Shown here in pieces: positions 53,099 through 56,157 of a stretch of 64,000 nt of DNA. Positions within the stretch are counted from its first letter, which is position 1; each line of letters starts with the position of its first letter. Both the position numbers and the translations under genes were made by a program. Under the pieces are notes generated by a model. It saw only the letters and a program-made list of their open reading frames with translations, was not told the origin of the DNA and did no database searches. Source of the DNA: Candidatus Poribacteria bacterium. GTDB lineage: Bacteria; Poribacteria; WGA-4E; WGA-3G. The stretch is taken from the NCBI GenBank assembly GCA_965197475.1, contig CBDANF010000003.1, positions 2,016,001-2,080,000 of the forward strand. The letters run 5' to 3'.

Positions 53099-53171
53099 GA
53101 CAATTCCTCCTATTTTGATGATATTATTTTTTGAATATGAATCCAGATTTAAAGTATCAATTGGTTAGTGA

Positions 53172-53279
53172 GATGCAATCTCAAAATATGAATAGATATT
53201 TTCACTAATGTAAGAGGTGCAATGAATTGCGCGACTACAAACATGTAAACGAAATGCGCAGCAATTTTTGAGATGGTAC
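53172..53279. mobile_element. MITE-like element with REP hairpin (family 1, inverted copy)
   Basis: 53208-53238 is the reverse complement of 8787-8817 with one mismatch; ends ATCTCAAAAT / ATTTTTGAGAT. Confidence 0.6.
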
Positions 53280-53527
53280 CTGCACAGAAACGAGATAGAC
53301 ATGAAAACGCATAGGTGAGAAAAATATATCGAATGTTTTACAAGGTTATAGAGATATTAAAAAAATGAAACAAATCGGTGAAAAATAGTTTTAATTAGAA
53401 TACACCATCGCGAGCACAAATGCAACATTTTTCGTCTCAAGAACGGCTCGGGCAAATTTCGTAATCGGCAAGAGCCAAAAATAGAGATGGTGAAAATAAC
53501 ATGATGCGAAGTGTAACTGTACAGGCA

Positions 53528-53563
53528 TTTAATGACGTATTGTACGTGCAATACGTCATTAAA
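53528..53563. promoter_or_regulatory. 15-6-15 palindrome, candidate tyrosine-recombinase (dif/lox-like) site
   Basis: TTTAATGACGTATTG-TACGTG-CAATACGTCATTAAA with perfect arms, 63 bp upstream of the recombinase ATG. The function is inferred. Confidence 0.6.
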
Positions 53564-53626
53564 ATGTTGACGCTGATAACGAAGCATGATACAATTAAAA
53601 TCGTCAAATTTTTATGGGGAGCTTAA

Positions 53627-54238
53627 ATGACGAAACCGAAAAGAAGAAAAACACAACAACCCCGAGTACTCGATGAATTACAACAGAGAATCCTTTTAGA
53701 GGCACTCAATAATAGAGAACGCGACAGGATGCTCGTACTCTTTTGCCTCCGAACAGGACTTCGAAACGCTGAAGCATGCGGCATGAATATCGGGGATGTG
53801 CTCAAATTTGGAAGCATTGTTACTACGTTAGAAGTGCGATCAGAAATTGCAAAAAATAAGGTTTCAAGAAGGATACCGCTCGTTAACGACGTAAGAGATG
53901 CACTCCACGATTTCTTGCTGTGGAAATTAGAACGAGGAGAAAAAAATGAATTGGAGAGTCCGCTGTTCTGCACACTTCGCACAAAAAACCGTCTGGCACC
54001 CCGAGACTTTCAGCGTATCATGGAAGCAGCGTCCGCAAACCTTGGGCTTAGGTTCACACCGCACGATTTACGCCATACCTTCGGCACAGAACTCTATCAC
54101 GCAACACATGATTTAGAATCGGTGCGCATTGCATTAGGACATACAAGTTTAGATGCAACACTTATCTATATGCATACTAGTCCTGATATATTGCGGCAGC
54201 GGTTTGAGACTGCGTTCGGTGGGCAAGCACAAGGCTAA
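53627..54238 (+). CDS. Tyrosine recombinase, catalytic domain only (203 aa)
   Basis: TGLRNAE (R), IAKNK (K), HDLRHTF (HxxR), LGH (H) and TLIY (Y) are all intact; no N-terminal core-binding domain. Confidence 0.92.
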   Translation: MTKPKRRKTQQPRVLDELQQRILLEALNNRERDRMLVLFCLRTGLRNAEACGMNIGDVLKFGSIVTTLEVRSEIAKNKVSRRIPLVNDVRDALHDFLLWKLERGEKNELESPLFCTLRTKNRLAPRDFQRIMEAASANLGLRFTPHDLRHTFGTELYHATHDLESVRIALGHTSLDATLIYMHTSPDILRQRFETAFGGQAQG

Positions 54239-54509
54239 AAATAAAATTGGATCTGCACATTGATATGTAAAATTTGCCTGTATAGGTAAAAGCATATATA
54301 ATATATCAGATTTAAGAAAAAAATGCGTTATACGCCAACGTGAGTATTAATTTTTAATCAAATTTAAGAAATTTTCCCATCCGAACAATTTAACTTCCCA
54401 ATTGCCAAATTTTCGCGGCTTTCTCATTTCCTCAATTTGTCTCGCAAAATGGGACTGAAACGGGAACACGGTTTAAGGTTGACTTTTTTTCACTTAGGGC
54501 GTATCCTAT

Positions 54510-54668
54510 TATAGTAGATTTTAGAATTACTTGGACATTGTTATCGGTCCAGTTGGGAAACAGTTCCTACCGCATATTTTGTAGCACAAACTTTTAGTTT
54601 GTGTCGTCCTTGCGCAAACTGAAAGTGGACGCTACAGCAGTGTCCAGATAATTACAGATTTTACTATA
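54510..54668. mobile_element. 159-bp MITE-like element with two REP-like hairpins (family 3)
   Basis: About 28-bp imperfect TIR TATAGTAGATTTTAGAATTACTTGGACA / TGTCCAGATAATTACAGATTTTACTATA; internal CGGTCCAGTTGGGAAACAGTTCCTACCG and GTAGCACAAACT...GCTAC. Confidence 0.75.
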
Positions 54669-54711
54669 ACATGATTCCTCCAGTTCATAATGCTAATGGT
54701 AGAGGTGAAAA

Positions 54712-56157
54712 ATGGCATATTCCAGTCTCAGAGATTTTGTGAAGGCACTTGATCGAGCAGGTGAGCTTAAACGCATAAAAACAAAGGTATCGCCCGATCT
54801 CGAAATAAGTGAGATCACCGACCGCGTTAGCAAAGCTGGCGGTCCCGCGCTGCTTTTCGAAAACGTTGAAGGCAGTGAGATGCCGTTGCTAATCAATACC
54901 TACGGTTCTTATTCACGAATGGCGATGGCACTCGGTGTAGATGACCTTTCACGAATTGCCTACGAAATTGAAGGGATGATTAAAATCGGACCGCCCGAGT
55001 CACTTCTGGATAAGGTTAAAATCCTCCGAATTCTATCACAGCTAACCAACTTCCCACCGAAAACTGTCAAGCGCGGCGCGTCTCAAGAGGTTGTCTTAAC
55101 AGGCGAAAACGCATCGTTGGATAGGCTACCGTTGATCAAATGCTGGCCGATGGATGCCGACAGATATATTACATTACCACAAGTATTTACCCACAGTTTG
55201 AAAACTGGTCAACGGAACGTTGGCACCTATCGGTTGCAGAAACTCAATCCTTATGCGTTAGCCATGCATTGGCAGATTCATCACGATGGCGCAGCACACC
55301 ACCGGGAATATAAACAGGCAGGTGAACAGATGTCAGTAGCGATTGCTATTGGCGGGGACCCGATTATGTCCTATATCGGGACCGCACCCCTTCCATCAGG
55401 AATCGATGAACTTCTGTTCGCTGGATTCCTCCGAAAATCCAATGTTGAGATGGTAGCTGCAAAAACGATTGATATGATGGTGCCTGCCGAAGCAGATATT
55501 GTCATTGAAGGCTTTATTGAACCTGATGAAACCTGTATTGAAGGACCGTTTGGTGACCATACGGGTTTCTATTCTATGCCAGATGAATACCCTGTTTTCC
55601 GTATCTCTGCCATTACACACCGAAAAGACCCCATTTACCAGACCATCATTGTAGGCAAACCGCCGATGGAAGATTGCTATATGGGTAAAGCCACCGAACG
55701 TATCTTTATGCCGCTGATTAAAACACAACTTCCTGAACTCGTGGATATGAACCTACCACTATTTGGTGTGTTTCACAACTTTGCCCTGATTTCAATAGAT
55801 AAACGCTATCCGTTCCAAGCTAAAAAGATTATGCACAGTTTTTGGGGACTCGGACAACTGATGTTCAGCAAAATTATTATCGTTGTTGATAAAGACGTTG
55901 ATGTACAAAACGTAGAGGAGGTCCTTTTCTATGTCGGGAGCAATGTTGACCCGAAACGGGATGTAACGATCATTGAAGGTCCTGTTGATGTGCTTGATCA
56001 CGCCGCACCCCTTATTGGTGCTGGATCAAAGATGGGTATTGATGCGACAACAAAGTGGCCAGAAGAAGGCTACCATCGGGAATGGCCCCCAGAAATTCAG
56101 ATGTCTAACGAAATTATTGAGTTAGTCAATGAGCGGTGGAAAAAATACGGCTTGTAA
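54712..56157 (+). CDS. UbiD-family decarboxylase (menaquinone-biosynthesis type)
   Basis: GPALLFENV, RNVGTYR, MHWQIHHDG, EGPFGDHTGFY, GKPPMED, KMGIDAT. Confidence 0.92.
   Translation: MAYSSLRDFVKALDRAGELKRIKTKVSPDLEISEITDRVSKAGGPALLFENVEGSEMPLLINTYGSYSRMAMALGVDDLSRIAYEIEGMIKIGPPESLLDKVKILRILSQLTNFPPKTVKRGASQEVVLTGENASLDRLPLIKCWPMDADRYITLPQVFTHSLKTGQRNVGTYRLQKLNPYALAMHWQIHHDGAAHHREYKQAGEQMSVAIAIGGDPIMSYIGTAPLPSGIDELLFAGFLRKSNVEMVAAKTIDMMVPAEADIVIEGFIEPDETCIEGPFGDHTGFYSMPDEYPVFRISAITHRKDPIYQTIIVGKPPMEDCYMGKATERIFMPLIKTQLPELVDMNLPLFGVFHNFALISIDKRYPFQAKKIMHSFWGLGQLMFSKIIIVVDKDVDVQNVEEVLFYVGSNVDPKRDVTIIEGPVDVLDHAAPLIGAGSKMGIDATTKWPEEGYHREWPPEIQMSNEIIELVNERWKKYGL

Follow-up and report, generated by a model that had tools for sequence, protein, structure and literature searches.

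The stretch of DNA analyzed here, referred to below as the window, comprises 64,000 nucleotides from the genome of a Candidatus Poribacteria bacterium (G000), a metagenome-assembled genome (MAG) from a sponge that totals 5.70 Mb in three contigs and is 92.7% complete. It carries a gene for a 203-amino-acid tyrosine recombinase and, shortly upstream, a palindrome made of two inverted arms around a spacer. A preliminary description of this DNA had singled out the pair as a candidate xer/dif-type module. We read the gene and the palindrome together as a single, self-contained module for site-specific recombination, whose parts are listed in Table 1 together with the elements that surround them.

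The only Pfam match of the protein is Phage_integrase (PF00589), which covers residues 14-185 with a score of 101.6 bits against a cut-off of 27.1. All 27 of 27 orthologues carry R46, K76, H146, R149, H172, and Y181 unchanged, and in a 135-sequence alignment of the wider family these residues are invariant or at least 90% conserved. The full R-K-H-R-H-Y set noted earlier is intact, and with a domain match that spans residues 14-185 of 203 the claim that no core-binding domain accompanies it also holds. Because the stop-to-stop frames of the orthologues measure 198-242 amino acids, there is no space for an N-terminal domain, and a home-made hidden Markov model of this domain, which has low sensitivity, detected none encoded separately in the genome (best E = 0.066, elsewhere). 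Modeling from the single sequence gave an unusable structure, with a predicted local distance difference test (pLDDT) score of 41. The AlphaFold2 model used instead, built from the 135-sequence alignment, has a pLDDT of 91.8. Its best Foldseek matches are XerA (5hxy, rank 1) and XerH (5jjv and 5jk0), and the top structural matches also include IntI4, Tn1549 Int, and Cre. A profile of the 135-member family matches XerA 4a8e with E = 1.4e-46, beginning at the two-domain boundary of that protein, and next XerA 5hxy (E = 6.9e-44), XerD 1a0p, and XerH 5jjv (E = 8.5e-30). We conclude that the protein is an active-looking tyrosine recombinase without a core-binding domain, and its catalytic domain is closest to those of XerA, XerD, and XerH.

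The palindrome has the 15-6-15 layout reported earlier: its arms are exact reverse complements, and 63 bp separate it from the recombinase open reading frame (ORF). The perfection of the arms, however, is peculiar to the window genome and G009, and most orthologues differ at base 4 of the right arm (A or G) or at a neighboring base. Read as two 18-bp halves without a spacer, the sequence has a sole mismatch, a T/G pair within the spacer (94%). It occurs once in the window, where 0.00 matches are expected (100 shuffles), and once in the 5.70-Mb genome; no second full or half site was found in G000, the next-best match to arm plus spacer having at least 4 mismatches in 21. As single-stranded DNA, the palindrome could form a 16-bp hairpin, and its folding z score is -5.8, with none of 200 shuffles folding equally well. 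Orthologues have T, A, or G at base 4 of the right arm, and one subclade has an A at the end of the left arm. Neither change is compensated, which argues for a protein-binding site with some asymmetry and against an RNA or DNA hairpin. The surrounding intergenic DNA yielded no Rfam match and no terminator-like site, and no T-run follows the palindrome; on these grounds, together with the uncompensated arm changes, we rejected an RNA element or terminator. The weak inverted repeat I12 (53514-53527 and 54275-54288) was likewise discarded as the ends of an invertible segment, since its downstream arm is not conserved. No joint at the palindrome was reported among Logan contigs, which are blind to rare variants, and we give this result no weight either way; the gene lies outside the reach of the contigs from RNA libraries.

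Table 1. Features of the recombinase locus (positions in the window)
Feature	Coordinates	Strand	Description
Dispersed repeat	53207-53243		Flanks the module region
Element A	53389-53435		TTAATTAG.ATACACCATCGCGAG..CAAATGCAAC
Conserved block left of palindrome	53494-53527		AATAACA ... GTGTAACTGTAC; candidate accessory or extended binding region
Palindromic site	53528-53563	+	36 bp; presumed recombinase binding and crossover site
Left arm	53528-53542		TTTAATGACGTATTG
Spacer	53543-53548		TACGTG; 6 bp, asymmetric
Right arm	53549-53563		CAATACGTCATTAAA
Recombinase promoter	53567-53595	+	-35 TTGACG (53567-53572), 17-nt spacer, extended -10 TG-n-TACAAT (53590-53595)
Shine-Dalgarno-like motif	53616-53621	+	GGGGAG, 5 nt ahead of ATG; GGAG-type motif conserved there in alignment
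Tyrosine recombinase gene, catalytic domain only	53627-54238	+	203 amino acids; ORF and Pfam match
Second conserved promoter-like site	54274-54302		TTGCCT, 17 nt, TATAAT
Element D	54317-54351		Six-codon mini-ORF MRYTPT (ATG 54323, TGA 54343) and alternative short hairpins
Dispersed repeat	54504-54669		Flanks the module region

The palindrome and the block to its left (53494-53563) are almost invariant over 26 orthologous loci, more so than the third codon positions of the gene. Most columns of the left block are at least 96% identical in these loci, the spacer is identical in all 28 genomes that carry the module, and the remainder of the 528-bp intergenic region is poorly conserved. The match of a metagenome contig from a relative to the window is restricted to positions 53495-53564. 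For the gene, the ratio of nonsynonymous to synonymous substitution rates (dN/dS) is 0.025-0.12 against the 24 orthologues with finite dS, and dS ranges from 0.5 to saturation (>2). The promoter of the recombinase ranks among the top two sigma-70-type matches in 53100-54720 (10 of 12 positions, with TG), its hexamers are kept in 19 of 19 aligned loci, and the palindrome ends 3 bp before its -35 hexamer. Separately, the motif of the left block (GAAGTGTAACTGTAC...) is tandemly repeated in some loci, with three copies in L019 and two, partial, in L008.

The distribution of the module was determined in 40 species-level genomes of the genus, G000 included, by a Pfam search for the gene and a pattern search for the site. 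Of the 40 species, 28 have the orthologue, and exactly these 28 have the site as well. Each of them contains a single copy, which precedes the gene by about 100 bp and keeps the same orientation. The palindrome that the preliminary description placed next to the window's recombinase is therefore a single-copy companion of its orthologues as well: none of the 19 aligned loci and none of the 28 genomes lacks it. No orthologue was found in other genera among the remaining 136 of the 176 phylum genomes searched. From these sequences, the module appears to be inherited vertically within one genus of sponge-associated Poribacteria.

The recombinase is the sole PF00589 match in G000 and in 11 of the 28 module-bearing genomes, G000 being among these 11. 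The preliminary description had left room for xerC and xerD elsewhere; neither an xerC/xerD-like gene nor any other tyrosine recombinase was found in G000. Searches of this genome also returned no FtsK motor domain, no FtsK gamma domain, and no serine recombinase, which we describe as not found instead of absent because the assembly is 92.7% complete. Given that FtsK was not found, any dimer-resolution activity would have to be FtsK-independent. RecA is present.

To place the module on the chromosome, we used the shorter arc from dnaA to the module, expressed as a fraction of the chromosome. In G000, oriC lies beside dnaA: a stretch of 600 bp directly behind this gene contains 9 DnaA-box-like sites, and no other place in the genome has more than 4. 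The arc is 0.462 in G003, 0.425 in G009, 0.461 in G017, 0.489 in G020, and 0.483 in G022, each of which is a single contig. In G000, the module sits in the middle of a 4.17-Mb contig, and its arc is 0.42-0.43 whatever the joining of the contigs. Because the genomes are related, these values amount to few independent observations. They are suggestive of a position that is terminus-proximal, though not fixed.

Upstream of the module lie a hydantoinase-like ORF (named by eye) and genes for a 2-hydroxyacid dehydrogenase and a Bmp/PnrA-type binding protein; downstream are genes for UbiD, a pyridine-nucleotide oxidoreductase, and DNA polymerase I (the last named by eye). Synteny upstream of the module is conserved across the orthologous loci. 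The ordinary character of the flanks, described before as free of phage or plasmid cargo, extends to the relatives, since no mobile-element genes occur in 26 loci inspected with 6-kb flanks. Element A is conserved in the intergenic DNA between the Bmp and recombinase genes, has no Rfam match, and is kept in genomes without the module. Past the recombinase gene, the second promoter-like site is followed by the nearly invariant element D. We assign element D to the downstream genes because it is conserved also in genomes without the recombinase, and it may be a leader or attenuator. It looks like the palindrome by eye only. As a second recombination site it was rejected: its alignment to the palindrome is matched by 20% of random genome windows, and it is kept where the recombinase is missing. 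In about half of the orthologous loci, an insert of three genes separates element D from ubiD (e.g., L023:6832-10427), encoding two 3-keto-disaccharide-hydrolase/LamG-type proteins and a TPR protein; other loci have FG-GAP/ASPIC proteins there, and the window has none. This interval beside the module is a hot spot of gene-content variation. Of the dispersed repeats that flank the module region, one consists of a unit of ~36 nt with 64 genome copies, and the other resembles a miniature inverted-repeat transposable element of ~160 nt with inverted ends, in 14-26 copies. Both have a very high summed depth in sponge metagenome contigs, and neither is conserved at this place in other species.

Five module-less genomes keep the Bmp and UbiD neighbors as well as elements A and D, and neither a replacement gene nor a coding remnant was found at their locus. 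Judging from moderate-scoring alignments, they also appear to retain a homologous promoter, preceded by a decayed, partly deleted palindrome. We read these sequences as the result of gene loss followed by decay of the site, an order of events that would tie the site functionally to the gene.

The enzyme belongs to a wider set of similar proteins. When a library of 1.8 billion proteins was searched, 120 of the 150 best representatives had lengths of 171-245 amino acids, with identities of 29-52%. Recombinases with a catalytic domain only thus appear to form a large, unnamed family, for which no described function was found in the literature searched. Among the few members whose DNA could be inspected, the association with a palindrome recurs. 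On L084, a 69-kb metagenome contig, two divergent mini-recombinase genes surround a 15-6-15 palindrome, with sulfatase and LamG genes as neighbors. In the phage-like loci L087-L089, a 188-amino-acid enzyme is accompanied by a 14-3/4-14 palindrome (14-bp arms) that lies over the promoter and overlaps its -10. The clade of L085 and L086 has no palindrome by the criteria used. The layouts in L084 and L087-L089 suggest that a mini-recombinase with an adjacent palindrome is a recurring module, found on mobile elements too, and its presence in two other divergent clades fits the palindrome as the cognate site in the family. Plasmid and phage collections gave matches of 28-35% identity, and the two plasmid matches inspected (H17 and H30) are full-length two-domain recombinases.

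Other homologues depart from this pattern. In another Poribacteria family, L081 (G078:C36), L082 (G081:C700), and protein P0057 represent homologues with identities of 47-51%. The L081 and L082 homologues have a long C-terminal extension with propeller-like repeats and a Leu in place of the GH histidine, and their recombinase domain may have been recruited to another role. L081 also has a TTAATGACG motif, like the site arm, just downstream of its promoter. The 167-amino-acid homologues in genus g3, which belongs to another Poribacteria family (L078-L080 and L083), were rejected as the same module, as the second His and the Tyr are missing and there is no palindrome. They are conserved in four of four g3 genomes, directly after another gene, and are truncated derivatives, probably inactive as recombinases.

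By analogy, the module would function most like the single-recombinase Xer systems and Cre/loxP. It shares with XerS/difSL and XerH/difH the combination of one recombinase with one chromosomal site and a gene placed beside that site, and the XerS and XerH sites, too, have inverted arms around a short asymmetric spacer. With its 15-6-15 geometry and a single copy in each of 28 genomes, the palindrome has the form of a Xer/dif-type site (inverted arms around a center of 6-8 bp). The catalytic domain of XerH (5jjv and 5jk0) is structurally close to the enzyme (Foldseek E ~1e-10). XerS and XerH have about 350-360 amino acids, possess a core-binding domain, and depend on FtsK. In the module, by contrast, the core-binding domain is not present, FtsK was not found, and occurrence within the genus is patchy. 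That xerS adjoins difSL is stated in an earlier report (PMC1914069). The best match in both sequence and structure is archaeal XerA, which is described as a single recombinase working without FtsK (PMC2958812). Unlike the enzyme of the module, XerA includes a core-binding domain; the alignment begins at residue 97 of XerA.

Cre/loxP of phage P1 resembles the module in its catalytic fold and in its layout, in which the gene adjoins a palindrome whose spacer is short and asymmetric. Cre needs no accessory factor but has 343 amino acids, including an N-terminal clamp domain; its identity to the enzyme in structural alignments is 14-16%, and it appears at Foldseek rank 23 and beyond. Textbook tyrosine recombinases clamp DNA between their core-binding and catalytic domains. 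FimB and FimE, tyrosine recombinases of about 200 amino acids that lack a core-binding domain, act as invertases. The enzyme is like them in size yet fails the cut-off of their sequence family, and such invertases need two inverted sites around a segment, whereas G000 has no second site or half site. As for the phage-like loci L087-L089, the module differs from them in being chromosomal, syntenic, and, as it appears, vertically inherited. Even simple tyrosine recombinases are described with core-binding and catalytic domains in passages of a classification paper (PMC8138268). Neither these passages nor full-text searches of the literature yielded an account of a Xer-like system that lacks a core-binding domain, or of any Xer from Poribacteria.

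We infer that the enzyme binds and cleaves the palindrome, acts between sister chromosomes, and regulates its own gene. The palindrome is probably the enzyme's own binding and recombination site, in our judgment and not by calculation. In such a scheme, two 203-residue monomers would bind the two 15-bp arms, and the basic N-terminal tail (KPKRRK) and the conserved left block may compensate for the missing clamp domain. Arm-bound enzyme could influence the promoter that begins 3 bp to the right, resulting in autoregulation; since the site abuts the -35 of this promoter, a role as an autoregulatory operator accords with the data and is probably also true. Synapsis would follow between two occupied sites, on sister chromosomes or on dimeric ones, and the enzyme would cut and swap strands where the 6-bp spacer meets the arms. 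As each chromosome carries a single site, the sole productive reaction would be between two chromosome copies. The outcome would be resolution of chromosome dimers or multimers without FtsK, as by archaeal XerA/dif or a cassette of the Cre/lox type. FtsK-independent, Xer-like chromosome dimer resolution is accordingly our leading reading of the module, which we hold tentatively. The preliminary description had proposed a single-recombinase system for chromosome dimer resolution, or else an autoregulatory operator; its interpretation is supported in part, and none of the refuting observations that it listed was encountered. In favor of dimer resolution are the coupling of gene and site, the strong constraint on both, the lack of a rival recombinase, the Xer-like domain, and a location roughly opposite oriC in five of five single-contig genomes; the absence of the module from 12 of 40 species and its varying position stand on the other side.

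A number of observations weigh against dimer resolution by this module. It lacks two defining Xer features: a two-domain architecture, with a core-binding and a catalytic domain, and the near-universal conservation within a lineage that is expected of Xer/dif, given its presence in 28 of 40 species. To our knowledge, no Xer functions without a core-binding domain. The protein does not belong to the XerC, XerD, XerS, or XerA equivalogs, for which it scores 94.2 bits against a cut-off of 335, 72.9 against 330, 78.3 against 267, and 95.4 against 220, respectively, in NCBIfam; these models align through their C-terminal halves only. Gene and site are both missing from all 12 remaining genomes of the genus, and the module is thus dispensable, as the loss of the gene and the subsequent decay of the site would also imply. 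In a Bmp tree, four of the five module-less genomes placed form one clade, with support of 100/99; rooted at the midpoint only, this tree would also accommodate a single origin of the lacking state. Three sister genera are represented by five near-complete genomes; PF00589 has no match in four of these, and the fifth has a pseudogene only. The lineage therefore lives without any Xer.

The position of the module raises similar doubts. Among genomes in several contigs, with dnaA and the module on one large contig, the arc is ~0.19 in G006, ~0.35-0.37 in G052, and ~0.42 in G055, and it is ~0.34 in G007, where the size of the contig was inferred; the position is therefore not fixed. G006 is the closest relative of the window genome, and its value of ~0.19, compared with at least 0.42 in G000, reflects either a large rearrangement or an assembly problem. 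The Bmp-UbiD locus lies at 0.35-0.44 in four module-less genomes, which makes the position a property of the locus. Cumulative GC skew, gene orientation, strand-corrected skew at third codon positions (GC3/TA3), and a scan for polar-octamer switches gave no terminus signal. Moreover, terminus-proximal regions tend to accumulate DNA of the mobile-element type, and L087-L089 adjoin genes for the large subunit of terminase, an HNH endonuclease, and a D5-type primase/helicase, neighbors that suggest a mobile-element origin.

Such an origin leads to a different account, in which a phage or plasmid cassette, of the int-attP or Cre/lox type, landed near the terminus in the ancestor of the genus and survives there, domesticated or as a relic, in a present role other than dimer resolution. 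Episomes with a matching site might dock at it, or it might simply persist. We regard this account as rather doubtful. It would explain why relatives of 188 amino acids with a 14-bp-arm palindrome over their promoter stand beside phage genes, why the orthologue is confined to one genus, and why 12 of 40 species have lost it with nothing in its place while sister genera do without such an enzyme. Yet the traits of phage integrases, namely, neighboring mobile genes and duplicated att sites, were not found: the 26 loci are free of phage and plasmid genes over their 6-kb flanks, and the site never occurs twice in one genome, so that there is no integrated element flanked by sites. Among IMG/VR viral contigs, there was neither an exact match to a degenerate pattern of the core nor a close relative of the protein. 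A dN/dS of 0.03-0.12 and an invariant 70-bp noncoding block over saturated synonymous divergence further point to a function maintained by selection.

The closeness of the site to the -35 hexamer could also mean that the palindrome is chiefly an operator of the gene's own promoter and that the true substrates lie elsewhere, too divergent to be recognized, for instance as short inverted repeats of a FimB/FimE-like phase switch. The overlap of the palindrome with the -10 in the phage-like relatives, a classical repressor position, fits this idea, as do the existence of invertases of this size without a core-binding domain, such as FimB and FimE, and a weak match to the FimB/FimE-type model NF007370 (37.9 bits; model positions 31-178 of 200 aligned). 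That score is far under the cut-off of 221, however, and no other sequence in G000 comes closer than 4 mismatches in 21 to arm plus spacer. An operator does not require a spacer that is invariant in 28 species, and two arms around 6 bp are the geometry of a core recombination site. The palindrome would also be centered some 57 bp ahead of the predicted start of transcription, an atypical position for repression. We therefore consider a purely regulatory site unlikely. It is most improbable that the palindrome has nothing to do with the recombinase, being instead a hairpin in RNA, a terminator, or the target of a different regulator that adjoins the gene by chance. A 16-bp hairpin can be drawn, and elements A and D nearby are independent of the recombinase, but the coupling of gene and site is perfect (28 genomes with both, 12 with neither) and the site decays after gene loss. 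A single copy in the genome does not suit a global regulator, and the missing T-run, the lack of a terminator-like site or Rfam match, and the uncompensated arm changes speak against an RNA element.

Under our leading reading of FtsK-independent dimer resolution, one may go further and propose that a lineage without XerCD or FtsK relies on a catalytic-domain-only recombinase as its only chromosome-multimer resolvase, an enzyme that would probably derive from a mini-recombinase of a phage or plasmid, captured near the terminus. This proposal is conceivable, although we lean against it. If true, the module would parallel in nature the laboratory exchange of dif/XerCD for loxP/Cre; Cre/loxP at the terminus can reportedly replace XerCD/dif in Escherichia coli (Leslie and Sherratt, 1995). 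Within a large family of ~200-amino-acid recombinases that carry adjacent palindromes, the enzyme would also be the first to have a role assigned. If it recombines a lox/dif-like site alone, it would represent a minimal working unit of the tyrosine recombinases, of interest for the mechanism of recombination and for compact genome-engineering tools. More broadly, the module would bear on how chromosome dimers are handled without FtsK and XerCD in a whole family of sponge symbionts, several of which have no tyrosine recombinase at all.

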